NCBI RefSeq assembly: GCF_000189295.2
Contig: NC_016803.1
Span: 3,360,001-3,392,000 of the forward strand
Origin: Pseudodesulfovibrio mercurii
GTDB lineage: Bacteria; Desulfobacterota; Desulfovibrionia; Desulfovibrionales; Desulfovibrionaceae
Reading direction: 5' to 3'
Length of the DNA: 32,000 bases
Shown here: in pieces, positions 5,759-23,382 of the stretch
Numbering within the stretch: position 1 is the first letter of the stretch
How the letters are laid out: each line of letters starts with the position of its first letter
Position numbers and translations under genes: made by a program
The notes under the pieces: model-generated
What the model was told of the DNA's origin: nothing
Databases searched by the model: none
The model's input: only the letters and a program-made list of their open reading frames with translations

Positions 5759-5902
5759 AATTAATAGCCTGCGGGCGCGAAAAACGCCGTCTATATTGCT
5801 TGAAACGTATGTTTGACGAATTCTATTCCCGAGAGGCGTCGGCAAGTCAAGGGTTTTCCCGGAACCGACCATTCCCGGTACATCCGCCAAGGAGCGCAGC
5901 CA

Positions 5903-6751: not shown

Positions 6752-6757
6752 GGCGGG

Positions 6758-6883: not shown

Positions 6884-6974
6884 AGGGTGGCGGAAGTCAG
6901 GGCCGTTTGGCGGGACGGTGGAAGGAGCTGGCAGGGCGGTTGGAAAGACGCGCGGATTTTCGTGTTCACACGGT

Positions 6975-7075
6975 CCGCGCAGCGGCGACAAAAAGTTTTG
7001 GAGAGTTCAGAGAACCTTTTTCAAAAGGTTCTTTGGCGGGTCCAGGGCGGAGCCCTGGCCGCCGGAGGCATCTTC
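6975..7075 (-). repeat. Intergenic repeat family A, inverted copy with a different hairpin core
   Basis: The reverse complement begins with the same 19 nt gaagatgcctccggcggcc (7075..7057). It ends ctccaaaactttttgtcgccgctgcgcgg, matching 25/29 positions of the copy 1 3' end. The core is replaced by the perfect palindrome agaacctttt-ga-aaaaggttct. Confidence 0.65.
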
Positions 7076-7448
7076 CCCTTCCGGCTCAGGGCGACAAAAG
7101 GGGCCAGGCGGTCCCGGACCGGGTTTTGCACCGGGAGCTGACCCTGGCCCCGCTCGGGACGGTTTGCGGCATCCAGGTCACGTTGCAGGCACCGGCCGTG
7201 TGGAGGGCTTGGGTCCGGGGAACGCGTCCTCTCCTGGTGCAATGCCGGTCAACCGTCAGCTATGGGAGGAGTGCCGTTTTCGGGCGGCCTGTGCGGCCGT
7301 TTGGTCAAGCATAGCCTATTCTCCGGGCGTTGGTATTATTTTTCGCGTCCGCCGGGTGTCCGATCCGGGGGAACAACAAAATGGTTGTCGGGACCGGGTG
7401 GAGGGCATACCCTCACCGGGTACGAATGTGACAACGAGGAGTCAGAAC

Positions 7449-7811
7449 ATGGATTTGAACAAGGCCTTGGCCGATCTGAAGAAGGAACCCGGTTTCGCCG
7501 AGAACGTGGGCATGATCCTGGTGCACAACGGCGTGGTCCGCGGCTGGTCCCGCAAGGGACGCGAGGAAGTGACGTCCATCGAGATCACGCCCGATTTCGA
7601 GAAGATGGAGGAGATCCGCAAGGAGATCGAAGGCCGCGAGGGCATTTTCCGCGCCTGGTGCCACGCCAATTCGGGCCTCATGCAGCCCGGCGACGACGTG
7701 CTGTTCCTGATTGTGGCGGGCGACATCCGCGAGAACGTCAAGCCCGCCCTGGCCGACCTGCTGGACCGCATCAAGTCCGAGGCCGTGACCAAGAAAGAAA
7801 TCTTCGCCTAG
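7449..7811 (+). CDS. MoaE-like molybdopterin synthase catalytic subunit family protein (short form)
   Basis: ATG at 7449 follows GAGGAG (7436..7441). The 120-aa product follows the MoaE-like pattern GMILVHNGVVRG...PGDDVLFLIVAGDIRENVKPALADLLDRIKSEAVTKKEI. It lies 8 nt upstream of moaA. Confidence 0.65.
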   Translation: MDLNKALADLKKEPGFAENVGMILVHNGVVRGWSRKGREEVTSIEITPDFEKMEEIRKEIEGREGIFRAWCHANSGLMQPGDDVLFLIVAGDIRENVKPALADLLDRIKSEAVTKKEIFA

Positions 7812-7819
7812 GACGAGCC

Positions 7820-8827
7820 ATGCACGAGCACCTTGAGGACAAGCACGGCCGCGAGGTCAGCTACATGCGCATCAGCGTGACCGACCGCTGCAACCTGCGC
7901 TGCACCTACTGCGCGGGCGAGGGGTTGGAGTTCATCCCGCACCCGAGGATTCTGCGCTACGAGGAGATCATGGATTTCATCGGCATGGCCCGCAACCTCG
8001 GGGTGCAGAAGATCCGCTTCACCGGCGGCGAGCCCTTCGTCCGCAAGGGTTTCGGGGACTTCATGATCCGTGCGGCCGAGCGCTTCGCTGACATGGACCT
8101 GTGCGTGACCACCAACGCCACGCTCATCGGCCCGGACGTGGATCGGCTGGCCGCTGCGGGCATCAAACGGGTGAACATCTCCCTGGACACGCTCCAGGCC
8201 GACAAGTTCGTGACCATCACCGGGCGCGACCATTTCGCCGTGGTCCGGGAGAACATCGACCGCTGCCTGGCCGCGAACATGACCGTGAAGGTCAACGCCG
8301 TGGCCATGAAGGGCGTCAACGACAACGAAGTGGGCGACTTCATCGAGTTCGCCCGCACCCACCCGCTGGACCTGCGGTTCATCGAGTTCATGCCCGTGGG
8401 CACGGAGACGGGCTGGGACGACAGCCGGGTCTGGACCGCGGCCGAGATACTGGCCGATGCCCGCGCCTTCGCCGAACTGACCCCGGTGGTCAAGTCCGGG
8501 GAGCGCCGCCACGGCCCGGCGCGCATGTACGACATCAAGGGCGGCCTGGGTCGCATCGGCCTCATTTCGCCCTACAGCGATCACTTCTGTTCCACCTGCA
8601 ACCGGCTGCGCATCACCTCGGACGGCAACCTGCGGACCTGCCTCTTTTCGGACAAGGTCTACCGGCTGCGTCCGGCCCTGCGCCATGCCAAACTCGGTCT
8701 GGAACAGGTGGAGAAGATCATCCGCCTGGCCGGGAAGAACAAGCCCATCGGCAACGAGCTGCTGCGCCGCATGCGCGCCTCGGACCACGGCGTCTGCAAG
8801 ACCCGCATGGCCTCCATCGGCGGGTAG
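7820..8827 (+). CDS. moaA: GTP 3',8-cyclase (radical SAM molybdenum cofactor biosynthesis protein A)
   Basis: 335 aa. Radical SAM CNLRCTYC, FTGGEPF, and the C-terminal cluster CSTCNRLRITSDGNLRTC. Confidence 0.93.
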   Translation: MHEHLEDKHGREVSYMRISVTDRCNLRCTYCAGEGLEFIPHPRILRYEEIMDFIGMARNLGVQKIRFTGGEPFVRKGFGDFMIRAAERFADMDLCVTTNATLIGPDVDRLAAAGIKRVNISLDTLQADKFVTITGRDHFAVVRENIDRCLAANMTVKVNAVAMKGVNDNEVGDFIEFARTHPLDLRFIEFMPVGTETGWDDSRVWTAAEILADARAFAELTPVVKSGERRHGPARMYDIKGGLGRIGLISPYSDHFCSTCNRLRITSDGNLRTCLFSDKVYRLRPALRHAKLGLEQVEKIIRLAGKNKPIGNELLRRMRASDHGVCKTRMASIGG

Positions 8828-9093: not shown

Positions 9094-12000
9094 TCAATCA
9101 ATACCCAGGTCGGCGCGATGCTTGGGCACGCCGGTCTTGCCGTCGGACTTGGTCTCCTTGTCCAGGAGGAAGACGCGGTCGGTCAGGGCCGGATCGCGGG
9201 TGATGATGTACTCCTTGACCGCGTCCGCGCGGTCCATGGCCAGCTGATGGAGCATCTCGTCGGTGACGTCGATGCGGTCGCGGATGAACTTCTCCATGAC
9301 GTCCACGGGCTGGCGGTCGGTGACGAACAGGGTGGTCGGCTTGACGCCCTCGTCGTCCGGCTCGGCGGCGTAGGCCTCGTAGAGCATGTCCTCGTACTCG
9401 TCCGGGGCCACCGTGATCTGGTCCACCGTGGTCTCGGCCCGCTTGGAGCGGGGCAGGTCGTCGTACTTGGCCTGCCTGATCTTGTGTTCCAGGATGACCT
9501 GGACGAGCCCGTTCCTGTCGGCCACGGGGTCCACCACGCCGTCCACCTCAAGCTTGAGCTTCGTGCGCTCGGTCAGGGCCTTGATGACGGTGTTCAGCTT
9601 GTCCTCGCCCTGGGCGCTCAAGCCCGCGCGGCCCGGTTCGAAGACCACGAAGTCCATGTTCTCGCCGCCGCCGAACATGGAGCCGATGAGCGAGAAGGGC
9701 GAGGTCAGGGCCTTGAAGAGCATGTTGATGATCGCCTGGAAGACGATGCCGCCGATGCGGAAGTTGGGGTCGTCCAGCCGCCCGGTGATGGGCAGGTTGA
9801 GCTGCATGTCGCCGTTGGAGTCCTGGAGCAGGGCCAGGCCGAACTCCACCGGGATGTTGGGCGCGTCGGGCCGTTTGTCCTTTCTGCCCAGTTCGAGCTG
9901 TTCGATGAAGAACTTGTTCTTGGCGTCCAGGACCCAGTTGTCGGTCTTGAAGGTCACGTCCGCATAGAGCCGCCCCTTCTGGATGGGGTAGGCCAGGTTC
10001 TTGAGGGTGTACGGGGTCAGGGGCACCAGCTCCATGCCGTTCACCGAGATGGTCAGGTCGGAATAGATGGGCCGGATCACCGGGTTGACCACGCCGGTCA
10101 CGGCCACGGGGGTGGGCCCGATCTTGGCCTTGAAGTCCACCTTGGGCCGTGCCTCCGGGGTCTGGCCGATGTCGGTCAGGCTCAGGGTCATACCCGTCAG
10201 CTCGGTGGCGAAGGACGGGTGGATGCTCTCGTCGCGGAACTTGAGCGCGCCGTTTTGCATGCCGACCTTGCCCACGGTCAGGGTCTCGAAGAACGGCTTT
10301 TCCTCGGCCGCCTGCTCCTCGGTCTGCGCCTCGATCTCCTTGACCTCGGCCTCGGGCACCGGGGCGGGCTGGGCGGCCGCCGCACCGGCCTTGTCCTCGG
10401 CCTGGGGCGCACCCTCGGCGGGCGCGGGCGCGGGTTCGGGCAGGCGCAGGGCGCGCCGGACGTTCAGGCGGCCGTCCTTGTCGAAGTGGACCAGGGCGCG
10501 CGGCCCGTTGAGGTTGATCTCGCCCACGGCCAGGACCATGGGTTCGTTCACAAAGTCGATGCCCTTGACGTCCAGCCGGTCGATGCCCGCCAGCTCGTCG
10601 TCCTCGAAGGTGGTCTTGACCTTGAGGTCGGACAGGGCGGTGCTGCCCTTGGCCGTGAACTTCGGGGTCTCGCCGCCGGTGAAGGTGTAGTCGAGGTCGG
10701 CGTGGACCGCGCCGTCGGCGATGAGCAGGTCCGTGTCCTGGGCCAGGTAGCCGTCCAGGGGACGCAGCCCGAACTTGCTGACCTTGATGGAGCCGTTCGA
10801 CTCCAGCGGGTCGATGGACGCCCTGCCGCGCGCCGAGAACCAGCCGCCGCCGGTCCAGCCCGCGCTGACGGAGTAGGGCATGCGCGCGCCCTTTTCCGTG
10901 GAGATGTCGGTCAGGTCCAGCTTGAACCTGCGCAGCCCGAGCCGGGTCGGCTGGGCCAGGGCCAGGTCCTGGAAGTCGGCGGAACCGTCCTCCACCACGA
11001 CGTGATCCACCGTGGCCGTCCACGGGGTCTCGGGTCCGTTGTCCGCGGTTCCCTGGGGTTCGGGCGCGGTCCCGGTCTCGACCGCGACCTCCTCGCCCGT
11101 CTTGGCGGCCTCTTCGAATATCCGTTGCAGGTCCAGGCGGCCGTCCTTTTCGCGGACCACCCGGACCGCCGGTTCGGACACCTTGACTTCGGCCACGCCG
11201 ACCTTGCGGCCGTCCAGGTCCAGGGTCGCGCCGGTCACGTCCAGGGCTCCCAGGGTCAGGCTCGGCTCCTTAGCCTCGGGTTTGCGCACGGCCAGGTTCG
11301 CCAGGTTCAGGGTCCCGTTTTGCGCGGTCACCTGCGGCTTGCCGTCCGGCTCGCTGAAATCCAGGTCCACGGAGAAGCCGAGCTTGCCGGAGTCCACCAG
11401 CAGGGGCTGGGCCTCGTTGAGGTACGGGGCGTAGAGGGGCACGTCCAGGTCCTTGCCGGACAAGGTCAGTTTGGTCGTGGGCGGGGTCACGGTGGCCTCG
11501 CCCTTGACGTAGATGAATCCCTCGGAGCCGAAGGAGCCGTTGAACACCGTGGTCTGCTCGGGCCGGGTGGACAGCCCTTCGGCCGTGAAGTCGAGCTTCG
11601 GGAAGGTGTGGCGGAAGCCGCCCTTGACGCACTGGTCGCTGAAATCCACGGTCCCGTCCTTGATCTCGAAATTGCGCAGGTCGAAGACGAAGGCGGCGTT
11701 GGTGTCCGCCTCGGTCTTGACCTTGGGGCCGGTGGGGCCGGGCTCGGAGCCGGGGAAATAGCCCGTCCAGTTGATCTCGCCGTCGGCCCGGCGCACGACC
11801 TTGAAGAACGGCTGGCTCATGGAGACCCGCTTGACGACCAGGGCGTTGTCGCCCAGGGAGAACCGCTCCATCTCGAAGGCCAGCTTCTTCATGGAGAAGA
11901 CCGGGCCGTCGCCCGGCGCGGTCAGCTCCAGGTCGGTCAGGGTCCCGCCGCCGCCCAGGTAGAGGTTGATGCGCTGCGCCTCGGGCCGTTCGAAGAACAG

Positions 12001-12801
12001 GGAAATGTCCGAGGTGAACCGCCCGCTCTTGAGTTCGAGCGGGGTCTTGATGGGCATGTATTTCCAGTACTGTTGCAGGTCCACATCCACCGCGCCCAGT
12101 TCGAACTCGGTCCGCAGTGTCTTATCGAAGGGCAGGGTGCGCCCCTTGAGCTCCACGGGGTCGCCGTTGACCACGGCCGTGAACACCGGCTGGGTGAACT
12201 CCTTGACGTCCTTGGCGATGCTCGAGGTGAACGGCACGCGCAGGTGGATGTCGGCGATGACGTGCTTCTTGCCTCGGGGCCGGTCGTCGAAGGTGATCAT
12301 GGAGTTGGTCAGCTCGAGGCCGTACAGGGCGAAGGGGAAGATGGCGCCCTTTTCCTCCGGCTTGGGCTGCTCCTGGTTGACGCTGTCCGGGGTGCCGAGC
12401 AGGTCGGAGACGGAGTACTTGCCGTTGCCGTAGAAGGTCACGTTGACGTTGAGCCCGTCGAGCTTGAGGTAGCTGACCACCGGGGCCAGCTTCCAGATGG
12501 AGGAGGCGCCGGGCGCGACCTCCAGGTGGCCCAGGGAGAGGAGGTCGCCCTCCTCCTTGAGGTTTTTGATGTGCAGGTCCGAGGCCTCCAGGTGGAAGTT
12601 GAGCGGATTGAATCGGATGTCGCCCAGGCTGGCCTCGCGCTTGAGGTTTTCTTTGATCTGGCTGACCAGGACCGACTTGAGGATCGGGGGTACGGCGAAG
12701 AAGCCGAATAGGGTGTAGACCACGAAGGCGGTCAGCAGCCAGAAGACGATGCGCCGAAGGAGCGGGGTGCCGAAGTGTATCTTGTCGAGGAAAGCCAGCA
12801 T
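9094..12801 (-). CDS. Large membrane-anchored DUF748 / AsmA-like protein
   Basis: 1235-aa ORF. N-terminal TM helix (IVFWLLTAFVVYTLFGFFAVPPIL). Long beta-rich repetitive body, central Ala/Pro/Glu-rich linker and protein-like composition. The family call is from memory of the DUF748 architecture. Confidence 0.88.
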   Translation of the reverse strand: MLAFLDKIHFGTPLLRRIVFWLLTAFVVYTLFGFFAVPPILKSVLVSQIKENLKREASLGDIRFNPLNFHLEASDLHIKNLKEEGDLLSLGHLEVAPGASSIWKLAPVVSYLKLDGLNVNVTFYGNGKYSVSDLLGTPDSVNQEQPKPEEKGAIFPFALYGLELTNSMITFDDRPRGKKHVIADIHLRVPFTSSIAKDVKEFTQPVFTAVVNGDPVELKGRTLPFDKTLRTEFELGAVDVDLQQYWKYMPIKTPLELKSGRFTSDISLFFERPEAQRINLYLGGGGTLTDLELTAPGDGPVFSMKKLAFEMERFSLGDNALVVKRVSMSQPFFKVVRRADGEINWTGYFPGSEPGPTGPKVKTEADTNAAFVFDLRNFEIKDGTVDFSDQCVKGGFRHTFPKLDFTAEGLSTRPEQTTVFNGSFGSEGFIYVKGEATVTPPTTKLTLSGKDLDVPLYAPYLNEAQPLLVDSGKLGFSVDLDFSEPDGKPQVTAQNGTLNLANLAVRKPEAKEPSLTLGALDVTGATLDLDGRKVGVAEVKVSEPAVRVVREKDGRLDLQRIFEEAAKTGEEVAVETGTAPEPQGTADNGPETPWTATVDHVVVEDGSADFQDLALAQPTRLGLRRFKLDLTDISTEKGARMPYSVSAGWTGGGWFSARGRASIDPLESNGSIKVSKFGLRPLDGYLAQDTDLLIADGAVHADLDYTFTGGETPKFTAKGSTALSDLKVKTTFEDDELAGIDRLDVKGIDFVNEPMVLAVGEINLNGPRALVHFDKDGRLNVRRALRLPEPAPAPAEGAPQAEDKAGAAAAQPAPVPEAEVKEIEAQTEEQAAEEKPFFETLTVGKVGMQNGALKFRDESIHPSFATELTGMTLSLTDIGQTPEARPKVDFKAKIGPTPVAVTGVVNPVIRPIYSDLTISVNGMELVPLTPYTLKNLAYPIQKGRLYADVTFKTDNWVLDAKNKFFIEQLELGRKDKRPDAPNIPVEFGLALLQDSNGDMQLNLPITGRLDDPNFRIGGIVFQAIINMLFKALTSPFSLIGSMFGGGENMDFVVFEPGRAGLSAQGEDKLNTVIKALTERTKLKLEVDGVVDPVADRNGLVQVILEHKIRQAKYDDLPRSKRAETTVDQITVAPDEYEDMLYEAYAAEPDDEGVKPTTLFVTDRQPVDVMEKFIRDRIDVTDEMLHQLAMDRADAVKEYIITRDPALTDRVFLLDKETKSDGKTGVPKHRADLGID

Positions 12802-12953: not shown

Positions 12954-12969
12954 TGGCATGGAATATGCG
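12954..12969 (+). promoter_or_regulatory. Candidate sigma-54 type -24/-12 element upstream of the histidine kinase gene
   Basis: TGGCATG-gaat-ATGCg versus consensus TGGCACG-N4-TTGCW. GG and GC are correctly spaced. It lies about 115 nt upstream of the start at 13086. Confidence 0.25.
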
Positions 12970-13085
12970 GATTTTGTTGCCATATTGTGGATATCCGGTG
13001 TATGTTGCAGGCGAATGAAAGTGCCTGCGGGGTCCGGTGCCCGGCCCGCGATCCCGGGGCGCATGAACGCCGACCGGAGCGTGCC

Positions 13086-14798
13086 ATGTCCGACGTGCAT
13101 TATTATCAGGGTTTGGCCAAGAGCATGATGTTCACCATCATCCTGGTCTCCTTCGCCCCCCTGTTCGTGGTCGTGCTCATCGCCGGGTACCAGTACAGCG
13201 TGGCCTACGAGGAAAAGGTCGAGGCCCACCTGCGCGAGCTGGTCCTCAAACACGACCAGACCATCGACGCCTACCTGGACGAGAAGGTGGCCGAGATCCG
13301 GGTCCTGGCCGAGGTCATCGACCTCGGACACCTGGCCACGCCCGAGGGCATCGAGGCCCTGCACGACGCCCTGACCAGGGGCCACGGCACGGATTTCGTG
13401 GACCTGGGGCTGATCGACGAGCGGGGCATTCAGGTGGCCTATTCCGGGCCGTTCCTGCTCCAGGGGCTGGATTACTCCCGCGAGCCGTGGTTCAAGGCCG
13501 TGGGCCGGAACACGGTCCATGTCAGCGATGTGGGGCTGGGCATGCGCGGGGTGCCGCACTTCATCATCGCCCTGCGCATGCGGGCCGACGGCCGCCAGTG
13601 GGTCCTGCGCACCACGCTCGACTTCATCGCCTTCAACCGGCTGGTGGAGGACATCCGCATCGGCGAGACCGGCATGGCCTACATCATCAACCGCGAAGGA
13701 AAATTTCAGACCACCCCGCGCCGGGACATGACCGCCGAGGTCCCGTTCCTGCGCGAGCTGGCCCGGTCCGTCTCCGGGGACGGCGACCGGGGCGGCCGGG
13801 CGGCCATGGCGGTCATGGACAACCCGGCCACGGGCCGCAAGACCATCTTCGTGACCAGCCTGATCAAGGACGGGGACTGGCTGATGGTCTACCAGCAGGA
13901 CGCGGCCGACGCCTTCGCCACCCTGAATCGCAGCCGCGACCTGGCCATCGTCATCCTGTTCCTCGGCGGCCTGGCCATCACGGTCATGGCCTATCTCATG
14001 AGCCGCCGCATGGCCCGCAAGGTGGCCAAGGCGGACTCGGCCAAGGAGATTCTGAACGAGCAGGTCATCGAGGCGGGCAAGCTGGCCTCGGTCGGCGAGC
14101 TGGCCGCGGGCATCGCCCACGAGATCAACAACCCGGTGGCCATCATGGTCGAGGAGGCGGGCTGGATCCAGGACCTCCTGGAGGAGGGCCTGTCCAAGAG
14201 CGACAACGAGCGCGAGGTCCAGCGGGCCCTGAACCAGATCCGCACCCAGGGCGCGCGCTGCAAGGAGATCACCCACAAGCTCCTGTCCTTCGCCCGCAAG
14301 ATCGATCCCACGGTCATGTCCTTCGACCTCAACGAGCTGGTCCGGGAGATCGCCGAGCTGTCCGCCCAGCGGGCCAAGTACGCCAACGTGGTCATCGAGA
14401 CCAGCCTGGGCGACAACATCGCGCCCATCAAGGCGAGCCCGTCGGAGATGCAGCAGGTCTTCCTCAACCTGGTCAACAACGCCATCGACGCCATGGACCC
14501 GGGCGGGGGCAACCTGGACATCAGCACCCGCCAGGAAGGCGATACGGTGCTGACCCTGGTCTCGGACACCGGGTCCGGCATCCCCGAGGCCAACCTGTCG
14601 CGCATCTTCGACCCGTTCTTCACCACCAAGCCGGTGGGCAAGGGGACCGGGCTCGGCCTGTCCATCATCTACGGGATCGTCAACAAGATGGGCGGGACCA
14701 TCTCCGTGGACTCGGCCGTGGGCCGGGGCACCACATTCACCATCAGCATGCCCGCCGGATCGCCCGACGATGCGGACGACGAGGATTCGGAGGCGTGA
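13086..14798 (+). CDS. Sensor histidine kinase with extracytoplasmic (Cache-like) sensing domain
   Basis: ATG at 13086 follows GGAG. Two TM segments ([41 protein letters not shown]) flank about 260 aa. H-box [14 protein letters not shown]-box [13 protein letters not shown]-boxes DTGSGIP and [10 protein letters not shown]. Confidence 0.9.
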
Positions 14799-14825
14799 CG
14801 ACCATGCAACCATCGGGAGGGCGAG

Positions 14826-15260
14826 ATGCCTGCAAGAGTACTCCTCGTTGACGACGAAAAGGGGTTTGTGGACACCATGGCCAAACGGCTGGAGAACCGG
14901 GGCTTCACCGTGGGCGTGGCCTACGACGGCGCCCAGGCCCTGGCCGCCCTGGACAAGGGCGAGATCTATTTCGACGTGGTCGTCCTGGACGTGAAGATGC
15001 CGGGCATGGACGGCAACGAGGTCCTGAAAAGGATCAAGGCCGAGCATCCCCTGGTGGAGGTGGTCATGCTGACCGGCCACGCCACCGTGGAGTCGGCCAT
15101 CGAGGGCATGAAGTCCGGGGCCTTCGACTACATGATGAAGCCGTGCAACCTGGACGAACTCATGGCCAAGATCGGCGAGGCCCACGACAAGAAGCAGGCC
15201 CACGAGGACAAGATTCTCGAGGCCCGCGCCCGACACATCGTCCTGCGCAGGGGCGATTAG
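14826..15260 (+). CDS. Stand-alone response regulator receiver protein with short helical C-terminal tail
   Basis: 144 aa. LLVDDE, VVLDVKMPGMDG, VVMLTGHA, GAFDYMMKP. No output domain. Confidence 0.93.
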   Translation: MPARVLLVDDEKGFVDTMAKRLENRGFTVGVAYDGAQALAALDKGEIYFDVVVLDVKMPGMDGNEVLKRIKAEHPLVEVVMLTGHATVESAIEGMKSGAFDYMMKPCNLDELMAKIGEAHDKKQAHEDKILEARARHIVLRRGD

Positions 15261-15269
15261 GAGGCGGCC

Positions 15270-15641
15270 ATGGCCGACACCCCCATCCGCGTGCTCCTGG
15301 TGGACGACGAGCTCGGCTTTCTCGAGGTGCTGGCCAAGCGCCTGCGCAAGCGCGGCTACGCCGTGACCGCGGCGGGCAGCGGGAGCGAGGGTATTCGGGT
15401 GCTCAGGGACAACGATTTCGACGTGGCCGTCCTGGATCTCAAGCTCGAAGATATGGACGGCATAGAGGTCTTGCAGATAATGAAGAAGATGGTGCCGGAA
15501 TTGCCGGTCATCATGCTCACCGGCCACGGCTCCGAGCAGGCCGCCAGGGAGGGCGTCGAGTCCGGCGCCTTCGACTACCTGCTCAAGCCGTGCGACCTCG
15601 ACGATCTCCTCGACAAGGTCGGGGAGGCCGTGGCCGGATAA
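15270..15641 (+). CDS. Stand-alone response regulator receiver protein
   Basis: 123 aa. LLVDDE, AVLDLKLEDMDG, VIMLTGHG, GAFDYLLKP. AGGAGG RBS upstream. Confidence 0.93.
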   Translation: MADTPIRVLLVDDELGFLEVLAKRLRKRGYAVTAAGSGSEGIRVLRDNDFDVAVLDLKLEDMDGIEVLQIMKKMVPELPVIMLTGHGSEQAAREGVESGAFDYLLKPCDLDDLLDKVGEAVAG

Positions 15642-15668
15642 ACGGAAACGACAGGACGGGAGTGGCGT

Positions 15669-16079
15669 ATGGCCGACATAAAAGCGCTCCTCGTGGACGA
15701 CGAGGAATCCTTTCGAAACACCCTGTGCAAGCGGCTCACGCGCCGGGGCATGACCGTGGAACAGGCTGGCTCGGGCGAAGAGGCCCTGGAGCGGCTCAAG
15801 ACCTTCCAGCCGGACGTGATCCTGCTGGACGTCAAGATGCCCGGCATGGACGGTCTGACCGCCCTGCACAAGATCAAGGAAATCAATCCCCTGGTGGAGG
15901 TGGTCATGCTCACCGGCCACGCCAGCATGGAGATCGCCATCCGGGGCATGGAGCTCGGGGCCTTCGACTACCTGATGAAGCCCGTGGAGTTCGAGGAACT
16001 GCTCTACAAGCTCGAGGACGCCTCCGAGCGCAAGCGGCACCACGAGGACCGCATCGCGGCCAGGGCCGGCAGCTCCTGA
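15669..16079 (+). CDS. Stand-alone response regulator receiver protein with short helical C-terminal tail
   Basis: 136 aa. LLVDDE, ILLDVKMPGMDG, VVMLTGHA, GAFDYLMKP. The tail KRHHEDRIAARA resembles the tail of the first receiver (KQAHEDKILEARA). Confidence 0.93.
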   Translation: MADIKALLVDDEESFRNTLCKRLTRRGMTVEQAGSGEEALERLKTFQPDVILLDVKMPGMDGLTALHKIKEINPLVEVVMLTGHASMEIAIRGMELGAFDYLMKPVEFEELLYKLEDASERKRHHEDRIAARAGSS

Positions 16080-16158
16080 TTCCCGGCCCGGCCTTCCCCG
16101 ACATTCACCAGAGAACCCTGAGACCCTGACCTAGGCTATCTTCAAAGGACGACACCCA

Positions 16159-18747
16159 ATGGGCCTGTTCGACCGGTTGCGGTTCCGCAAAAAGGAAAAG
16201 ACCCCCGAGGAGCGGGCCGAGATGCGTCGCGTCTTCGCCACCCGCTACGACCATTTCCGGCTGCTCATCCAGGCCAACACCCGCGCCCACGAACTCATGG
16301 GCGAGCTGGAGGAGGCCCTGCGCGGCTTCACCCCCTACGGCATGCACTTCGTGCGCACCCTGTGCACGCGCATCTCCACCTCCATCTACCAAATGGTCCG
16401 CCACCTGGGTGAACTGGAATCCCAGGGCCACAGGGAGCTGGTCGCGGCCATGCAGGTCATCAACGAGCGGATCATGGAGGAGCTGGAGCCTGAAAACCAT
16501 GCCGTCAGCGGCAGCCTGGTCATCGACCTGACCGAGGTCAACCGCGACCACGCCGACCTGTGCGGCCCCAAGATGGCCATGCTCGGCGAGGCCGGGTCCA
16601 GTCTGGGCCTGAGCATCCCGTCCGGCTTCGTCATCACCGTGGCCGCCTACCACCGCTTCGCCCAGAGTCAGGGTCTCGGCACCGAGATCGACCGGCTCAT
16701 CCAGACCATGGCGGGCGACGACCGCGAGTCCGTGTTCCAGGCCTCGTCGAGCATCATGCAGCTGGTCATGGAGACCCGCCTGCCCGACGACCTGGCCGAG
16801 GCCATCCTGGAGGCCTACGACAATTTGGCGGCCGGACTCGGCGCCCTCCCGGACCTGGCCGTGCGCTCCAGCGCGCTGGGCGAGGACATCGAGGGCTCCT
16901 CCTTCGCGGGCCAGTACCGGTCCGTGCTCAACGTGGACCGAGCCTCCCTGCTCGACGCATACAAGGAGGTGGTCGCCTCCAAGTATTCGCGCCAGGCCAT
17001 GGCCTACCGGCTGAGCCACGGCATCCGCGACGACGACGTGGCCATGTCCGTGGGCTGCATGACCATGGTCCAGTCCATGGCCGGCGGCGTGGCCTATTCC
17101 GGCAACCCGATCAACGTGCGCGACGACCGCGTGTCCATCAGCTCGGTCTGGGGACTGCCCAAGCCCGTGGTGGACGGCACGGCCGGGACCGACGAATTCA
17201 TCGTGGCCCGCGACCCCCTGCGTCTGGAGGAGGTCCACGTGGCCGACAAGATCGACATGTACGTCTGCAGCCAGGACGAGGGCGTGTGCCGCGAGGAGCT
17301 GACCGGAGACAAGGGCTCGCAACCCTCCCTGACCGAGGAACAGGCCCTGCTCGTGGCCCGCGAGACCGTGCGCATCGAGGAACATTTCGGCATCTCCCAG
17401 GACATCGAGTGGGCCATGACCGCGGACGGGGCCTTCCATCTGCTGCAATGCCGCCCGCTCATGCGCGTGTCCTCGGGCGAGAGCGAGGCGCCCGTGGCCA
17501 ACCTGCCCGAGCCGGTGCTCAAGGGCGGACGGACCGCCAGCCCGGGCGTGGGCGTGGGCCCGGCCTTCACCGTGCGCAAGGATGTGGACGCCCTGAGTTT
17601 CCCGGACGGCGGGGTGATGATCCTGCGCCAGGCACTGCCCAGCAGGGCGGCCCTGCTCGACCGCGCCAGCGCGCTCATCTCGGAGCAGGGCGGCATGGCC
17701 GGGCACTTGGCCAACGTGGCCCGCGAGTTCGGCGTCCCGGCCCTGTTCGGGGTCAAGGACGCGGTGGGCCGCTTCGAGAACGGCCGTATCCTGACCGTGG
17801 ACGCCGAGGGCCGCGCCGTGTACGACGGCGCGGTGGAGGCCCTGCTCAAGGACCACCCCCGGCAGCGGATCATGCGCGGCAGCCCGGTCCAGGCGGCCCT
17901 GCGCAAGGCCGCCCGCCACATCGTCCGCCTGAACCTGACCAACCCGGAGTCCCCGGAGTTCAAGCCCGTCAATTGCCGGACCCTGCACGACGTCATGCGC
18001 TACTGCCACGAGCGGGCCGTGAACGTCATGTTCGCCTTCGGCACCCACGACGACTACATCGAGGCCGCCAGCCGCCAGCTCATCTGCGACGTGCCCAAGC
18101 AGTTCTGGATTCTCAACCTGGACGACGGCTTCTCCCCCGAGGGGCTGGCCCGCAAGGACCGCTGCATCCTGCTCGAACACATCGTCTCCTATCCCATGCA
18201 GATGCTCTGGGCGGGCATGCAGGCCGTGCCCTGGGAAGGCCCGCCGCCGGTCCACGGCCGGGGGCTCATGTCGGTCATGTTCGAGGCGACCATGAACCCG
18301 GACCTGATCCCGTCCTCGGGCACCCGCTACACCCAGAAGAACTATTTCATGGTCTCCAAGAACTACTGTTCGCTCCAGTCCCGTTTCGGCTTCCACTTCT
18401 GCGGGGTCGAGGCCCTGGTGGGCGAACGGATCAGCGAGAACTACGCCTCCTTCCAGTTCAAGGGCGGGGCCGCCAACATGGAGCGCCGCATCCGCCGCGC
18501 CCGCTTCGTGGGCGACATCCTCGAGATGTACGACTTCCGCGTCCGCGTGCGCCAGGACAACATGTTCGCCCGCGTCGAAGGACTGGACCACGACACCATG
18601 GGCCATCGCCTCAAGATCATCGGCTACCTCATCACCCACACCCGCCAGCTCGACATGATCATGTCCGACGAAGCCGCCGTGGCCCGCCGCCGCGAACGCT
18701 TCCTCAAGGACTTCAAAATGTTCGACCCCCCGACCGAGGACGAATGA
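16159..18747 (+). CDS. PEP synthase / pyruvate phosphate dikinase-like enzyme: ATP-grasp nucleotide domain plus swivel phosphohistidine domain, with unrecognised N- and C-terminal regions
   Basis: 862 aa. CGPKMAMLGEAG, LAVRSSALGEDIEGSSFAGQYRSVLNV and IEWAM..HLLQCRPL (PPDK_N type). GGMAGHLANVAREFGVPALFG (mobile His domain, His516 at 17704..17706). I do not recognise the last roughly 295 aa. Confidence 0.9.
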   Translation: MGLFDRLRFRKKEKTPEERAEMRRVFATRYDHFRLLIQANTRAHELMGELEEALRGFTPYGMHFVRTLCTRISTSIYQMVRHLGELESQGHRELVAAMQVINERIMEELEPENHAVSGSLVIDLTEVNRDHADLCGPKMAMLGEAGSSLGLSIPSGFVITVAAYHRFAQSQGLGTEIDRLIQTMAGDDRESVFQASSSIMQLVMETRLPDDLAEAILEAYDNLAAGLGALPDLAVRSSALGEDIEGSSFAGQYRSVLNVDRASLLDAYKEVVASKYSRQAMAYRLSHGIRDDDVAMSVGCMTMVQSMAGGVAYSGNPINVRDDRVSISSVWGLPKPVVDGTAGTDEFIVARDPLRLEEVHVADKIDMYVCSQDEGVCREELTGDKGSQPSLTEEQALLVARETVRIEEHFGISQDIEWAMTADGAFHLLQCRPLMRVSSGESEAPVANLPEPVLKGGRTASPGVGVGPAFTVRKDVDALSFPDGGVMILRQALPSRAALLDRASALISEQGGMAGHLANVAREFGVPALFGVKDAVGRFENGRILTVDAEGRAVYDGAVEALLKDHPRQRIMRGSPVQAALRKAARHIVRLNLTNPESPEFKPVNCRTLHDVMRYCHERAVNVMFAFGTHDDYIEAASRQLICDVPKQFWILNLDDGFSPEGLARKDRCILLEHIVSYPMQMLWAGMQAVPWEGPPPVHGRGLMSVMFEATMNPDLIPSSGTRYTQKNYFMVSKNYCSLQSRFGFHFCGVEALVGERISENYASFQFKGGAANMERRIRRARFVGDILEMYDFRVRVRQDNMFARVEGLDHDTMGHRLKIIGYLITHTRQLDMIMSDEAAVARRRERFLKDFKMFDPPTEDE

Positions 18748-18871
18748 AGATGCCTCCGGCGGCCGGGGGAAGGGGGAGAGGGAACCCTTTGTAAAGGGCT
18801 TCCCTCTCCCCCTTCCCCCGGACCCCCCATCCCCCTCACCTTCCTAAACTTTTTATCGCCGCTTCGCGGGG
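18746..18871 (+). repeat. Intergenic repeat family A, copy 2
   Basis: See copy 1. It starts inside the TGA stop codon (18745..18747) of the PpsA-like gene. Core arms gggggaagggggagagggaa / ttccctctcccccttccccc. Confidence 0.85.
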
Positions 18872-18884
18872 CGGTTCACAACAA

Positions 18885-18926
18885 AAGGCCTTCGACTCAA
18901 CATCGAGTCGAGGGCCTTTCATTTTT
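18885..18926 (+). terminator. Intrinsic terminator downstream of the PpsA-like gene
   Basis: aaggccttcgactc-aacatc-gagtcgagggcctt (14 bp including one G.U), followed by tcattttt. Confidence 0.65.
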
Positions 18927-19010
18927 GACTTCTTCTGGAGCGATTCGGGTGCGCAGCTACCCGACAGCGGCTCTTCCCCCGCCGCTTGGACGTCCTCGGA
19001 ATAGGCTTGG

Positions 19011-19126
19011 GAGAGTGGGGCAGCTGTGCATTTTCTTCCAGGGGGCTTTCACCGCAGCGTAGCCGTCTACGTGAGGATGAAAGTCCCCTGGAAAAAATGT
19101 GCAGATGGCCCGCTATCGCAAGCCGC
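19011..19126. repeat. Intergenic repeat family B, copy 2
   Basis: Aligns with 8985..9088. Stem ccagggggctttca / tgaaagtcccctgg, with paired changes relative to copy 1. Confidence 0.75.
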
Positions 19127-19140
19127 TTCCCTAGACCCCG

Positions 19141-19184
19141 AAAAAAAGAAGGCGACCCCCGCCAGGGGATCGCCTTCATTTTTT
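19141..19184. terminator. Bidirectional intrinsic terminator just downstream of tmcA
   Basis: aaaaaaa-gaaggcgacccc-cgcca-ggggatcgccttc-attttt. The stem has one bulge. The A-run on + supplies the U-tract for the minus-strand tmc transcript. Confidence 0.6.
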
Positions 19185-19199
19185 CGAGGGTCTTGCTCC

Positions 19200-19601
19200 C
19201 TACTTCACATGGCATTCGCCACAGGCGATGGGGCCCTTGCCCTGTTCCTTGTGGCAGCCCTGGCACTGGAGGTGGTAGGCCCGCATGAGCGGGGTGCCGC
19301 CGTCGGTGCGCTTCTCCGCGTGGCAGGAGCTGCAGGGCTCGCCTTCGGAGGAGGTCTCGAGGTTCCGGGTGCCGTCGTCGTTCTTGGAGTGGTGGCAGAT
19401 CACGCAGTCGTCCAGGCCGGCCTTCTCGTTGTGGGCGTCATGGGCGAACGGGACGCGGGGACGCTCCAACTTGGCGAAGCCGTCCACCGGCACCTGGGTC
19501 ATGTCGTCCTGGGAAAAGGCCGTGGGGGCCATGTAGACGATGACCAGCAGCATGACGGTGACCATGGAGGCCGCGAGCATGAAGGTATTCTTTTTGTGCA
19601 T
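19200..19601 (-). CDS. tmcA: Tetraheme cytochrome c3 family protein (type II c3, TmcA-like)
   Basis: 133 aa. N-terminal hydrophobic signal/anchor and four CXXCH motifs (CVICH, CSSCH, CQGCH, CGECH). GGGAGG RBS. It follows the HdrD-like and cytochrome b genes. Confidence 0.88.
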   Translation of the reverse strand: MHKKNTFMLAASMVTVMLLVIVYMAPTAFSQDDMTQVPVDGFAKLERPRVPFAHDAHNEKAGLDDCVICHHSKNDDGTRNLETSSEGEPCSSCHAEKRTDGGTPLMRAYHLQCQGCHKEQGKGPIACGECHVK

Positions 19602-19611
19602 GGCGTCCTCC

Positions 19612-20931
19612 CTAGACTTCCGGTTTTTCCATCAGTTCGTAGATGATGTCGCTGATGAACTTTCCGTGCATCCCGAGATCATAGTAACCGATGATGTCTT
19701 CGATGCCGCCGTGGCAGTTGTGGCAGGGGATGACCACATCGTGCACGCCGGTCGCCTTGAGCTGTTCCGCTTTGACCCGGTTGCCGGTCATGCGGGTGTT
19801 CTTGAACGGCGGCCCGCAGTTGATGACGCCGCCGCCCGCGCAGCAGCAGTAGTTGTGCTCGCGGTTGGGCACCATCTCGACCACTTCCTTGCACAGGAAG
19901 TGGACCACGTCGCGGAGCTTGTCCATGAGGCCGCGGCCGCGGATGATGTTGCAGGGGTCCTGGATGGTCACCGGGTTCTCGTACTGGTGGGTGATCTTGA
20001 TCTTGCCCTCGTTGATCAGCTCCCAGTAGAAGTCGATGGCGTGGATGACCGGGACCGGCATCTGTTTGTGGCCGAGCCAGCGGTTGCCCATGTCGTAGAC
20101 CGAGCGGAAGGCGTGGCCGCACTCGCCCATGACGATGCGCTTGACCCGCAGCTTCTGCGCGGACTCGTAGTGGGCGCGTTTGAGGCGGCCCATGTTTTCG
20201 AAGTCGCCCACGAACATGCACATGTCCGAGTTGTCCCAGCCCGGATGGGAGGGCATGGTCCAGTCAACGCCGGCGGCGTTCATGATGGCCGCGGCCTGAT
20301 AGATGAGCTGGGTCCGGAACTTGGGTTCCGGGGCGATGACCGAGTAGTATATCTCGGCCCCTTCCTTGTCGAGCGGGATGCGCAGGTCCGGGAACTCGTC
20401 GCGGGCCTCGTCCTCCTGCCACTGCAGGGAGTCGATCCACTCGTCGTCCTTGACCCACATCTGGTTCATGGTCGAGGCGTGGGAGTGGGCGGTGTCGCGG
20501 ATGTACTGCGGGACCACGTCCAGCAGGTAGCAGATGCGGCGCACCATGGACATGATGTAGCCGGTGTCGATGCCGATGGGACAGTAGTGGGCGCACCGTT
20601 TGCAGAGGTTGCACTCGGTGTAGGCCATCTGGGCCATCTCGTAGATGCGCTGGGGCGAGACCCGGCCCTTCTTGTCCATCAGTTCGTACATGGTCTGGGT
20701 GGCCTTGTTCACGGGCGAATAGCTCGGATCGTTGTCGTGAGACATGTAGAAGTGGCAGCCCTGTGAACAGAGGCCGCACCGCATGCACGTCTCCTTGTAC
20801 GCCCGGAGTTTGGCACCGGTTTCACCTTTGAGCGTCCGGTTGACCACTTCCTCGATCTTGTCGGTGGTCAGCGCGGCGACGCCGGCTTCAAGGCCGACGT
20901 CCGATATGATTCTGTCAGCAATGTGACTCAT
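19612..20931 (-). CDS. tmcB: HdrD/DsrK-like iron-sulfur protein with CCG-type cysteine motifs (TmcB-like)
   Basis: The ATG at 20931 gives 439 aa. Two ferredoxin-type motifs, CMRCGLCSQGCHF and CNLCKRCAHYCP. C-terminal Cys clusters NYCCCAGGG and PCHNCHGG. Confidence 0.88.
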   Translation of the reverse strand: MSHIADRIISDVGLEAGVAALTTDKIEEVVNRTLKGETGAKLRAYKETCMRCGLCSQGCHFYMSHDNDPSYSPVNKATQTMYELMDKKGRVSPQRIYEMAQMAYTECNLCKRCAHYCPIGIDTGYIMSMVRRICYLLDVVPQYIRDTAHSHASTMNQMWVKDDEWIDSLQWQEDEARDEFPDLRIPLDKEGAEIYYSVIAPEPKFRTQLIYQAAAIMNAAGVDWTMPSHPGWDNSDMCMFVGDFENMGRLKRAHYESAQKLRVKRIVMGECGHAFRSVYDMGNRWLGHKQMPVPVIHAIDFYWELINEGKIKITHQYENPVTIQDPCNIIRGRGLMDKLRDVVHFLCKEVVEMVPNREHNYCCCAGGGVINCGPPFKNTRMTGNRVKAEQLKATGVHDVVIPCHNCHGGIEDIIGYYDLGMHGKFISDIIYELMEKPEV

Positions 20932-20963
20932 TATTCGTACCTCGCGTTGCGTAATGGTTTGGC

Positions 20964-21623
20964 CTACCAGTCGTGGGCATGGCGGACACCGCCGAACTCC
21001 GAACCCATGTACGCCCTGGTGAACAGGACGAACAGCGCGTGGCTCAGACGGGTGAACGGGATCAGAGCGAGCAGCAGTTCCCCGGAGAGCACGTGCAGGG
21101 TGGTCATGAGCAGGACCGGACCCACCTGGTGGTAGGCCAGCACGCCGGTGAGGAACGGCAGGGCCACGAGGATCAGGGCAAACCAATCCTGGCAACGGGT
21201 GACGCCCTTGACGTGCGGCAGCGCGAGGCGGCGGTACGCGAAGACGGCGCAGCCGAGCAGGGCCACGAAGCTGACGATGTCGCCGAACTGCGCGGGCAGA
21301 CTCGGCAGGTTGATGCCGAACGCGGTGTTCCACATGACGACGTGCGCACCCAGGAATACGGCCACCAGCAGGAAGCAGAGGTGGAAGATGAAGGTGGTCA
21401 CGGTCATCAGGGGATCGGATTTCCAGCCCATGGACTTGAACGGGATCATCCACACCAGGATGGAGCGCAGTCCGTAGTACCAGCTCATGTAGGCGATGGA
21501 GGAGCCGTCCTTGGCCTTGGCCTGGGAGTACATGCTGACCAGCCGGTAGATGCCGCCCAGGATGAAGACGCCGAAGGCGATCCAGGCGAGGGGGCCGGTG
21601 ACGAAGGCGTAGAATGCAGTCAT
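20964..21623 (-). CDS. tmcC: Integral membrane cytochrome b (NarI/HdrE/DsrM-like, TmcC-like)
   Basis: ATG at 21623 follows GGGGGAG. 219 aa with 5-6 predicted TM helices and conserved His residues (FIFHLCF, GAHVV, TLHVLSGE). Confidence 0.85.
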   Translation of the reverse strand: MTAFYAFVTGPLAWIAFGVFILGGIYRLVSMYSQAKAKDGSSIAYMSWYYGLRSILVWMIPFKSMGWKSDPLMTVTTFIFHLCFLLVAVFLGAHVVMWNTAFGINLPSLPAQFGDIVSFVALLGCAVFAYRRLALPHVKGVTRCQDWFALILVALPFLTGVLAYHQVGPVLLMTTLHVLSGELLLALIPFTRLSHALFVLFTRAYMGSEFGGVRHAHDW

Positions 21624-21636
21624 ATCAGCTCCCCCT

Positions 21637-22896
21637 TTAGAAGTTGCACACTTCCGCGACGATGCGGACGTAGCTGTTGTTTTCGATGGCGCGGATGAGC
21701 ACCTTGGTGCCGTCCTCGCTGAAGATCGGGGGCCACACGGCGTCGAAGTCCCGTTCAAAGGACTTGCCGTTGACCAGGATCCGGAATCTGCCGTTCTTTT
21801 CCACCTTGGCGGCCACGGTCGAGGAGTCCGGGGAGAAGACCACGGGCCAGACCATGTCGTAGGTGCCGGCCCAGGCGGTGCCGTCCACTACGATGCGGAA
21901 GTCCTTGTTGTACTCGGAGGCCAGGATGGCGGCGCGCTGGCCGTCGGGGCTGACCACCAGGTCGGACACGGTGGGCCAGGTTTCGTCCCAGGAGGCGTTG
22001 TTCACGCAGGCGGTGAACTGGCCGTAGCTGGTGGCCACCACGGACCACAGTTTTTCGCCGGAGGCGTCATACTGGAGGTAGAAGCACTGGACGTAGCGGG
22101 GTTCCCAGAGGATGTTTCCGTCCTTGGCCACGCCCCACTTGCCGGCCACGCGGACCGGAGCGACGACGCTGCCGTCCTTGGGACAGAAGATCGGCTCCCA
22201 GACCTGGTTGTAGGTCGCGTCCCAGGGCTTGTCGTCCACGACGATGGTGTGGGCGTAGACAGTGGTCCGGCAGGTGGCGGCCAGGGAGTCGCCCTCGTTG
22301 TTGAAGACCGGGTTCCAGATGTTCACGTAGCGGCCTGCCCAGGCCTCGCCGTCGACGGCAACGGTGTACACGCCGCGCTTGAACCCTTCGAGGTCGGCGG
22401 CGGCCAGGTTTTCGGCCTGGACCACGGCGGCGGTGTGCTCGCCGTTCTTGGAGAAGGCGGGCATGTTGGCGTTTTCAAACAGGTTTTCCCACGGCTCGCC
22501 GTTCACGCACATGCCGTACCGCTCCATGGACTTGTACATGGTGGCGATGGACGAGCCGTCCTCGCTGAACATGGTGTCCCAGATGTAGTCGGTGGTTTCG
22601 CCCATGGCTTCGCCGTCGGCCACCAGGACCCATTCCATGTCCTGCTGGCAGATGGCGGTCAGGCGGCCGTCCGGGGAGAATTTCGGATACCAGATCTTTT
22701 CGAACGTGGCTTCCCAGACCGAGTCGTTGGTCCGAACGGAGAACTCGCCGTCGCCGATCTTGACGATGGCGGCGATGGTCTCGCCGTCAGGCGAGACGTA
22801 CGGCTCTTCCTGCCATTCGTGTCCTTCGAGAGGGGAGAGGGATTTAACGACCGTTTTTTGGCCGGGTTCCCAATCCCATGAGGAGATTTTTCCCAT
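21637..22896 (-). CDS. tmcD: Tryptophan-rich repeat protein (TmcD-like), cytoplasmic, probable beta-propeller
   Basis: ATG at 22896 follows AAGGGGG. 419 aa with about 11 tandem units of roughly 38 aa, of the form V.G..W...YD.VW.P.FSPDG (for example TAWAGTYDMVWPVVFSPDS, KPWDATYNQVWEPIFCPKDG). Confidence 0.82.
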   Translation of the reverse strand: MGKISSWDWEPGQKTVVKSLSPLEGHEWQEEPYVSPDGETIAAIVKIGDGEFSVRTNDSVWEATFEKIWYPKFSPDGRLTAICQQDMEWVLVADGEAMGETTDYIWDTMFSEDGSSIATMYKSMERYGMCVNGEPWENLFENANMPAFSKNGEHTAAVVQAENLAAADLEGFKRGVYTVAVDGEAWAGRYVNIWNPVFNNEGDSLAATCRTTVYAHTIVVDDKPWDATYNQVWEPIFCPKDGSVVAPVRVAGKWGVAKDGNILWEPRYVQCFYLQYDASGEKLWSVVATSYGQFTACVNNASWDETWPTVSDLVVSPDGQRAAILASEYNKDFRIVVDGTAWAGTYDMVWPVVFSPDSSTVAAKVEKNGRFRILVNGKSFERDFDAVWPPIFSEDGTKVLIRAIENNSYVRIVAEVCNF

Positions 22897-23382
22897 AGCA
22901 CCCCCTTGTGTTGTGACACCGCTCCCCATGGGAGCGGCAGAAAATCGTCCCACCCTCGGGCGGCGAGACCGTTCATTCAACGTGGGGGTCGTGTTCGTCG
23001 GACGGCATTCACTTCGGCCCATCCCGACAGGGTCATCGGATTGCAGCCATCCGCCTGGTTCGCTGCGCGCAGCCCGGCGGGCGTGTCTGAATCCAAGGGA
23101 CGGCCGACCTCGGGCACTGAGGCCCGCTTCGCGCGGCCTGCCCGGGGTCGCCGGGCATGACGATTTCGACTCCCAAGGATTCGAGGCGGTCCGGCGGCCT
23201 GGGCCGTCCGAACCAGGATGTGCATCCCTTCCCGAAGTGCACCCTCGATTCCGTTGCTGATACCAGCTAGGGCCTCGGTCCAAGATACATCGCGACAAGG
23301 AATATCCATACATTTCAGCAGATTCCTTGCCGCTCGCAACCTCTTGGCCTGAGACAAGGCTATGTATAAGCACAGGGCAAGA

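Follow-up and report, generated by a model that had tools for sequence, protein, structure and literature searches.

Stand-alone receivers are common, and their targets are mostly unknown. The CheY-type, DivK, Spo0F and Myxococcus RedCDEF systems are two-component systems with several receivers of this kind. We describe here a locus of Pseudodesulfovibrio mercurii that resembles these systems in combining one kinase with several output-less receivers bearing canonical catalytic residues. It lies at positions 13086-18747 of a stretch of 32,000 nucleotides (hereafter referred to as the window), corresponding to positions 3,360,001 to 3,392,000 of contig NC_016803.1. Unlike the known multi-receiver systems, its operon encodes no HPt or Spo0B transferase, Che protein, hybrid kinase or terminal DNA-binding regulator, and its sole non-signalling gene is that of an 862-amino-acid dikinase-type enzyme. 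The kinase, with HisKA and HATPase_c domains, and the complete receivers are those of a classical two-component system, but there is no regulator with an output domain; nor is the locus a multistep His-Asp-His-Asp phosphorelay, as the kinase is non-hybrid and there is neither an HPt or Spo0B protein nor a terminal regulator. No description of a kinase-receivers-dikinase pairing was found in full-text literature searches. The locus is one form of a module, combining signalling and effector genes, that occurs widely in Desulfobacterota and, judging from its sequence and predicted structure, its enzyme is not a phosphoenolpyruvate (PEP) synthase but belongs to a subfamily that is new within a known superfamily.

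Five open reading frames (ORFs) lie on the + strand of this interval, with intergenic gaps of 27, 9, 27 and 79 nucleotides. They encode a sensor histidine kinase (13086-14798, 570 amino acids), three stand-alone receivers, hereafter referred to as R1 (14826-15260, 144 amino acids), R2 (15270-15641, 123 amino acids) and R3 (15669-16079, 136 amino acids), and the dikinase-type enzyme (16159-18747, 862 amino acids), which has PPDK_N and PEP-utilizers mobile domains. The kinase gene starts at the ATG at 13086, an in-frame ATG further upstream (12936) being a less likely start. This arrangement had been proposed in a sequence-only reading of the window, and the ORF coordinates agree with it, as do the independently made gene calls of Pseudodesulfovibrio indicus, which has the same five genes with equal Pfam content and, at 87% identity, the nearest named relative of the 862-amino-acid protein. 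A strong intrinsic-terminator-like hairpin of 15 pairs (18884-18919), followed by a run of T residues (hairpin and run together 18884-18929, + strand), is the probable end of the operon. Because this hairpin follows the last gene and none comparable was found between the five genes, the locus is consistent with a single operon.

The kinase is organized, in order, as a first transmembrane segment, a periplasmic dCache_1 domain (residues 41-269, E 3e-19), a second transmembrane segment, HisKA with an H-box (E 4e-08) and HATPase_c (E 6e-28). The dCache domain sits between two hydrophobic segments read from the sequence (residues ~13-35 and ~277-299), so the periplasmic sensing already suggested for this kinase is plausible. 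Its best NCBIfam similarity, limited to the catalytic half, was to AtoS/ZraS-type kinases, and neither Pfam nor NCBIfam revealed an HPt domain or hybrid architecture. In R1, R2 and R3, Response_reg (E 1e-30, 1e-29 and 5e-32, respectively) fills nearly the whole protein and is the only domain. The NCBIfam models for NtrC, AtoC, ZraR and GlrR align to these proteins through their receiver parts only, and each of the three has the canonical DD/D/T/K residues of an active receiver. As had been noted from the translations, no helix-turn-helix (HTH), AAA+, GGDEF/EAL/HD-GYP or Che domain was detected in the five proteins with Pfam and NCBIfam, and the same searches gave no match to the HPt/Spo0B family. 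The PADLOC defence-system models matched neither the kinase nor the dikinase, and for the receivers gave generic receiver-domain similarity only.

The 862-amino-acid protein resembles PpsA (EC 2.7.9.2) and PPDK in the order of its ATP-grasp and swivel domains and in the retention of the nucleotide/Mg motifs and the catalytic His. Its ATP-grasp domain (PPDK_N, PF01326; residues 133-444, 16555-17490, E 6e-85) contains the PpsA-type motifs RSSALGED, FAGQ, QDIEWA and LLQCRP, all of which are invariant in 114 homologues. The swivel domain (PEP-utilizers mobile, PF00391; residues 481-550, 17599-17808, E 2e-15) contains the motif GGMAGH. This motif is encoded at 17689-17706, and the catalytic His is therefore His516 (codon 17704-17706), as previously proposed; it is likewise invariant in the homologues, which contain no other conserved HPt-like or DHp-like His. 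The regulatory Thr of PpsA and PPDK (GGxTSH) is missing, being replaced by Ala in the window enzyme and by Ala or Gly in the family. Given the conservation of domain order, nucleotide/Mg motifs and catalytic His, the protein is probably an ATP-dependent dikinase, transferring the beta-phosphate of ATP via His~P. Two further regions, residues 1-118 and 560-862, had no Pfam match even at E≤10. The first of these (16159-16512) is an extra helical N-terminus with respect to PpsA and PPDK, with helices at residues 16-55, 62-86 and 91-109 in the AlphaFold2 model. It is conserved in the family, with R29, F33, G56 and L94 invariant, and has no invariant His or Asp in the 114 homologues.

The second region, the C-terminal domain (residues 560-862, 17836-18747), occupies the place of the TIM barrel of PpsA and PPDK. 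AlphaFold2 models were obtained for this domain alone (pLDDT 70.9) and for the full-length protein with the 114 homologues (pLDDT 83.6, pTM 0.71). In both models, the domain of about 300 amino acids is alpha+beta and includes four consecutive antiparallel strands forming a meander (residues 728-768), and is therefore incompatible with a (beta/alpha)8 TIM barrel. No Pfam, NCBIfam or PDB family matched it: a profile search against PDB sequences gave nothing meaningful, and Foldseek searches of the PDB gave no match (best E 0.12, TM<0.25), the top hits being small proteins resembling type III secretion system chaperones (E>0.1, TM<0.25), which were judged to be noise. For the full-length model, the Foldseek matches were to PpsA (2ols), rifampin phosphotransferase (RPH) and PPDK, and were confined to the ATP-grasp and swivel domains (first ~600 residues).

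These results bear on the possibility that the enzyme is an ordinary PEP synthase (pyruvate, water dikinase), serving gluconeogenesis and located beside a two-component system by chance. Several homologues are named pyruvate, water dikinase in their sources, a name used by many databases, and the best NCBIfam and PDB similarities of the protein are indeed to PpsA, over residues ~120-600. However, the scores against the PpsA equivalog models NF005057 and TIGR01418 are below cutoff (317.4 versus 598 and 309.1 versus 739.75 bits, respectively), the NCBIfam alignments stop at about residue 598, and those to solved PpsA structures stop between residues 566 and 600, leaving the C-terminal 300 residues unmatched. 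The PEP/pyruvate-binding TIM barrel (PF02896) gave no match in the protein even at E≤10. Together with the antiparallel sheet of the C-terminal model, the extra N-terminal helices and the replacement of the regulatory Thr, the missing barrel and the unrelated domain in its place make this explanation extremely improbable. An ordinary PpsA orthologue with a normal C-terminal barrel, which the sequence-only reading had named as an outcome that would refute it, was rejected on these grounds.

In the C-terminal domain, about 17 charged residues are invariant in the 114 homologues, including H610, D611, R614, H617, E618, R742, H746, E751, R757 and R776, together with R780, D800, E807, H827, R829 and D832. 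This set of residues looks like an active site, and the domain is presumed to bind the phosphate acceptor. A profile of the domain identified 1403 representative clusters at 50% identity, 695 of them at E≤1e-30, and at least 595 species-level genomes encode it. In the best 150 clusters, every full-length protein has 840-900 amino acids, with the domain at residues ~560-870, and no fusion of a receiver with the dikinase was found. The four longest clusters (907-1078 amino acids) and one of 899 amino acids had no extra Pfam domain and no receiver.

Within the superfamily, RPH and PigC/RedH show that a lineage-specific domain can bind an acceptor other than pyruvate, and RPH is among the best structural matches of the ATP-grasp part. 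The architecture is nevertheless different: the acceptor domain of RPH and PigC is central and their swivel is C-terminal, whereas the swivel of the 862-amino-acid enzyme is central (residues 481-550) and the new domain is C-terminal. Foldseek revealed nothing similar to the rifampin-binding domain, and the score against the RPH equivalog model was 212, for a cutoff of 999. A functional analogy may also be drawn with Enzyme I (EI) of the phosphotransferase system (PTS) and with the EI-Ntr/NPr/EIIA-Ntr chain, in which a swivel phosphohistidine passes phosphate to a small protein and on to transporters. EI is charged by PEP through a TIM barrel and targets a His of HPr, whereas the donor here would be the ATP-grasp domain and the candidate partner an Asp receiver. 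Neither the PEP-binding TIM barrel nor the HPr-binding N-terminal domain of EI was found in the window enzyme; only the swivel resembles EI, and that similarity is weak (E 0.004 for EI in the PDB; 19 bits against TIGR01417, for a cutoff of 341.7).

We investigated gene order in 80 loci encoding proteins with 51-79% identity to the window enzyme in the C-terminal domain (designated by L numbers below), in which homologues of the window proteins were mapped by phmmer. The loci came from Desulfovibrionaceae, Desulfobacteraceae, Syntrophobacteraceae, Desulfomonilaceae, Desulfarculaceae, Desulfatiglandaceae, Desulfacinum/Desulfosoma and other groups, and counts of upstream genes refer to the 61 loci in which 4 kb or more of sequence precedes the dikinase gene. 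A receiver gene on the same strand was found within 7 kb upstream of the dikinase gene in 54 of these loci, and a receiver was present somewhere in the locus in all 61. A kinase was present in 37 loci, and kinases with a sensor homologous to that of the window were encoded upstream of the dikinase gene in 25. The linkage thus extends far beyond close relatives, to which the sequence-only reading had allowed that it might be confined.

In most related loci, two genes lie between the receivers and the dikinase: a TauE/SafE (TSUP) permease of ~430 amino acids (PF01925, E 1e-33; 52/61 loci) and a membrane protein of ~236 amino acids with no Pfam family (hereafter referred to as p236; 50/61 loci). 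Examples are L005-L007 (6293-7555 and 7559-8269 in L007), L012-L014, L023 and L033-L037, among many others. With about 70% identity across orders, TauE is better conserved than the dikinase (~50%). The dikinase gene was in every case immediately preceded by R3 (23 cases) or p236 (42), and TauE by R3 in 36 of 39 cases. The order R3-TauE-p236-dikinase persisted in the absence of any kinase within up to 20 kb in 11 of the 61 loci, in several of which recA and the gene of a T2SSE-type ATPase were the upstream neighbours. This persistence without a kinase identifies R3, TauE, p236 and the dikinase as the core of the system, for which the dCache kinase, R1 and R2 form a frequent front end. In the window itself, no TauE or p236 homologue was found by tblastn, and the operons of the closest relatives (L001, L002 and P. 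indicus) likewise do not contain this pair.

The receivers encoded upstream of the dikinase gene are predominantly single-domain proteins of 120-175 amino acids (123 of 133) and can be sorted into three orthogroups whose conserved tails differ. Members of the R1 orthogroup end in HE.KI.EAR..I.LRRGD, the window protein ending in the conserved tail HEDKILEARARHIVLRRGD; R2 is short and has no tail. In R3, the alpha5 helix is nearly fixed across the orthogroup (EELLYKLEDASERK in the window, consensus IDELLYKLQDAYKKK), and all 64 orthologues (64/64) retain the acceptor Asp, the Lys and a Thr/Ser. The orthogroups have a median identity to the corresponding window receiver of 58% (R1), 64% (R2) and 54% (R3). 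R1 and R2 accompany the dCache kinase (23/24), whereas the dikinase and permease genes have their closest linkage to R3.

Several loci depart from this simple order. L003 (5230-17341) has two paralogous kinase-R1-R2-R3 modules in a stretch of 12 kb; the dikinase comes after one of them and TauE-p236 after the other. The locus looks like an ancestral kinase-RRR-TauE-p236-dikinase operon that was duplicated and split, an arrangement that fits the dikinase and TauE-p236 both being outputs of receiver modules. Tandem dikinase paralogues were found in L025 (6649-12420), L049 (8288-13947), L039 and L060 (about 8.2-13.6 kb). In L025 and L049, the second dikinase has its own R3-type gene directly upstream, and a 715-amino-acid kinase and an NtrC-type regulator follow. 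A link between the lack of the N-terminal region in dikinase paralogues and the lack of a receiver gene was considered and dropped, as the L060 paralogue retains divergent N-terminal helices.

These observations can be assembled into a mechanism, the phosphotransfer steps, R3-enzyme contact and acceptor of which we infer. A ligand would bind the periplasmic dCache domain of the kinase, which would autophosphorylate and pass phosphate to the three NtrC-type stand-alone receivers. As the receivers have no output domain, they would act by protein-protein contact, with R3 binding and switching the 862-amino-acid enzyme encoded downstream and, in other genomes, the permease pair as well. The dikinase would use ATP to form His516~P, releasing AMP and Pi, and the phosphate would then pass to a probably anionic acceptor held by the enzyme's own C-terminal domain. 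The system would thereby most likely couple the sensing of an external compound to the transport and/or phosphorylation of an anionic substrate. Receiver phosphorylation by the kinase, with control of the dikinase (and elsewhere the permease) through contact with R3, is the reading that we prefer, although we hold it tentatively and consider it somewhat short of probable. The window contains no sigma-54 activator or HTH response regulator, which supports it. Several points weigh against it. In three Maridesulfovibrio loci, the dikinase gene is 2-8 kb away from the kinase-R1-R2-R3-TauE-p236 cluster. A direct partnership might be expected to yield some receiver-dikinase fusions, of which there were none in the best 150 clusters, and the window lacks the permease pair on which the transport theme is based. 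Gene adjacency fits co-regulation without physical contact equally well. Finally, these genomes are rich in two-component genes, and the co-occurrence of kinases and receivers is partly background; the adjacency specific to R3 is a stronger signal.

The 11 loci with R3-TauE-p236-dikinase and no kinase also raise the possibility that phosphate flows in the opposite direction, with the dikinase acting as an EI-like phosphodonor that passes phosphate from ATP via His516~P to Asp54 of R3. The dikinase is the sole linked source of phosphohistidine in these loci, the phospho-acceptor site is complete in all R3 orthologues, and each of the tandem dikinases of L025 and L049 has its own R3-type gene directly upstream. 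It is established that the PTS swivel domain phosphorylates a protein (EI to HPr) and that receivers can accept phosphate from simple phospho-imidazole donors. R3 would dock on the N-terminal helical bundle or on the C-terminal domain, and the swivel would present His~P to it; the permease or another target would then be regulated by R3~P. Where a dCache kinase is present, it would add an external signal or act as a phosphatase, and R3 would integrate this cue with the energy charge (ATP/AMP/Pi), to which it would be linked by a reversible dikinase. However, the invariant His, Asp, Glu and Arg residues of the C-terminal domain fit a small-molecule site, whereas a receiver brings its own catalytic site. 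Orphan receivers are also commonly served by unlinked kinases, no conserved His of HPt-like or DHp-like character is present apart from His516, and no precedent for dikinase-to-receiver transfer was found in full-text literature searches. We therefore consider this direction of transfer distinctly unlikely.

Co-transcription provides another explanation, in which the dikinase (with the permease pair elsewhere) is cargo or a metabolic gene that the receivers never touch. The receivers would instead be phosphate sinks or branch points, or would act in trans on an unlinked protein, such as a receiver-less sigma-54 activator. In many related loci, a second kinase and an NtrC-type response regulator (~460-500 amino acids, consisting of a receiver and an extension of ~345 residues) precede the cluster (L005, 80-2577; L007, 45-2950; L011, L024, L026, L041, L044, L048 and L079). 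Such NtrC-type activators, of ~470-500 amino acids and with a kinase of their own, point to the module being under sigma-54 control there. Upstream of the window kinase gene, the candidate promoter region (12954-13006, + strand) consists of weak consensus matches, comprising a sigma-54-like -24/-12 element TGGCATGGAATATGC (12954-12968), 118 nucleotides before the start codon, and a sigma-70-like TTGCCA-18-TATGTT (12977-13006). The sigma-54 pattern is not enriched across the window (18 matches versus 34 expected), and the position of the element alone is a hint. The absence of receiver-dikinase fusions is also in keeping with co-transcription.

A possible parallel is the DVU2957-2967 operon of Desulfovibrio vulgaris Hildenborough, which we take to carry kinase and receiver genes and in which we know of no dikinase gene. 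It includes the TSUP gene DVU2958 and is controlled by the receiver-less sigma-54 activator DVU2956 (PMC4641369, PMC8359166). This regulon (DVU2957-DVU2967, transmembrane transport), whose TSUP gene belongs to the conserved clade B, resembles the module described here in associating a TSUP permease of a sulfate reducer with sigma-54 control (PMC4641369, PMC5840216, PMC8359166). The window differs from it in having no TSUP gene. Several points argue against co-transcription alone. A sigma-54 activator or other regulator was sought in the window as the missing output, and none was found. R3 remains beside the dikinase or permease genes even where kinases and activators are missing, and the three receiver orthogroups, with median identities of 54-64% across orders and tails of their own, point to specific partners rather than generic sinks. 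On balance, we regard co-transcription without contact as unlikely, and return to our preferred reading, in which R3 acts on the enzyme and the permease.

The presence of TauE and p236 in most relatives shifts the likely theme of the system from redox sensing to anion transport. A highly conserved clade B of TSUP proteins from sulfate reducers has been discussed as possible sulfate transporters (PMC5840216), and the TauE of the cluster, which we liken to this clade because of its ~70% identity across orders, may belong to it. A further lead is provided by a proteomic study of thiosulfate disproportionation in Dissulfuribacter thermophilus, in which the products of three adjacent genes were more abundant (PMC13490349). 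One of them, DITHS69_1988, named PEP synthase, had a log2 fold change of 3.4 and was interpreted in terms of gluconeogenesis; DITHS69_1989 was described as a transmembrane protein co-occurring with TauE, and DITHS69_1990 as TauE (PMC13490349). Two different locus tags are given for this PEP synthase within the paper (PMC13490349). Gene order suggests that DITHS69_1988-1990 are a further example of the module described here, with PEP synthase a misnomer. Leads of this indirect kind were all that full-text literature searches returned, with no description of the gene cluster or the protein family.

A role in energy or redox state signalling had been considered conceivable in the sequence-only reading, on account of the proximity of the tmc redox operon and an oxidase cluster, but this part of it was not borne out. 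TmcA-like and TmcB-like matches were each found in one of the 80 related loci, giving tmc-like genes in 2/80, and the operon of P. indicus is 2.7 kb away from tmc, with other genes in between. As the adjacency is not conserved, a functional link to the tmc or oxidase genes was rejected as lineage-specific synteny. The ~2.7 kb separating the P. indicus dikinase gene from tmcA (L081/L082, 13375-15226) is made up of small ORFs, one of which contains a TEN_YD-shell fragment. Its counterpart in the window (18748-19199) has only ~450 nucleotides, suggesting an insertion/deletion difference between close relatives.

In the window, this counterpart contains, 11 nucleotides past the dikinase stop codon, a palindromic G/C-rich element with 33-nucleotide arms (18758-18826, no strand assigned; arms GGGGAAGGGGGAGAGGGAA), a second copy of which is found at 6778-6831. 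Both copies are apparently intergenic, and they look like repetitive extragenic palindromic (REP) elements, since there are four arm matches in the window versus 0.03 expected by chance. Beyond it, the tmc-type operon (19200-23373, - strand; outline only, as the listed ORF starts overlap and the true starts are further downstream) encodes a class III cytochrome c (19200-19601, -), a Fer4/CCG protein (within 19612-21453, -) and a NarI-like membrane protein (within 20964-21758, -), and includes one further ORF with no Pfam match. On the other side, a 1235-amino-acid DUF748/AsmA-like protein (9094-12801, -) is encoded divergently from the kinase gene. This neighbour is also present in L001-L003 and P. 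indicus, so that the synteny is limited to close relatives. Other ORFs of the window are at 4221-5552 (-), 5126-6625 (-), 6624-8827 (+), 25883-28144 (-) and 29387-31009 (+); the products listed for them are a glutamine-cyclotransferase-like protein, a TetR/CecR-type regulator, MoaE and MoaA-like products of molybdenum cofactor genes, a 4HB-HAMP methyl-accepting chemotaxis protein and haem-copper oxidase subunit I.

The module is real and conserved, and our searches turned up no earlier description of such an enzyme being coupled to a TSUP permease and stand-alone receivers. Gene order ties R3 to one enzyme and one permease across the sampled Desulfobacterota lineages, providing a testable receiver-target pair. 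Because the family lacks the pyruvate/PEP domain of the PEP synthases after which several sources name its members, metabolic and proteomic interpretations of its members as gluconeogenic may be wrong, and the PEP synthase beside TauE in D. thermophilus is a possible misnamed case (PMC13490349). Charging of R3 on its Asp by an ATP-grasp/swivel dikinase, by analogy with the charging of HPr by EI, would represent a new kind of phosphodonor; we accord this proposal a small probability. If it were true, the module would constitute a new, kinase-independent entry into His-Asp signalling, reading energy charge and gating a conserved TSUP permease. More generally, the module could bear on the control of sulfur-anion transport in sulfate reducers.

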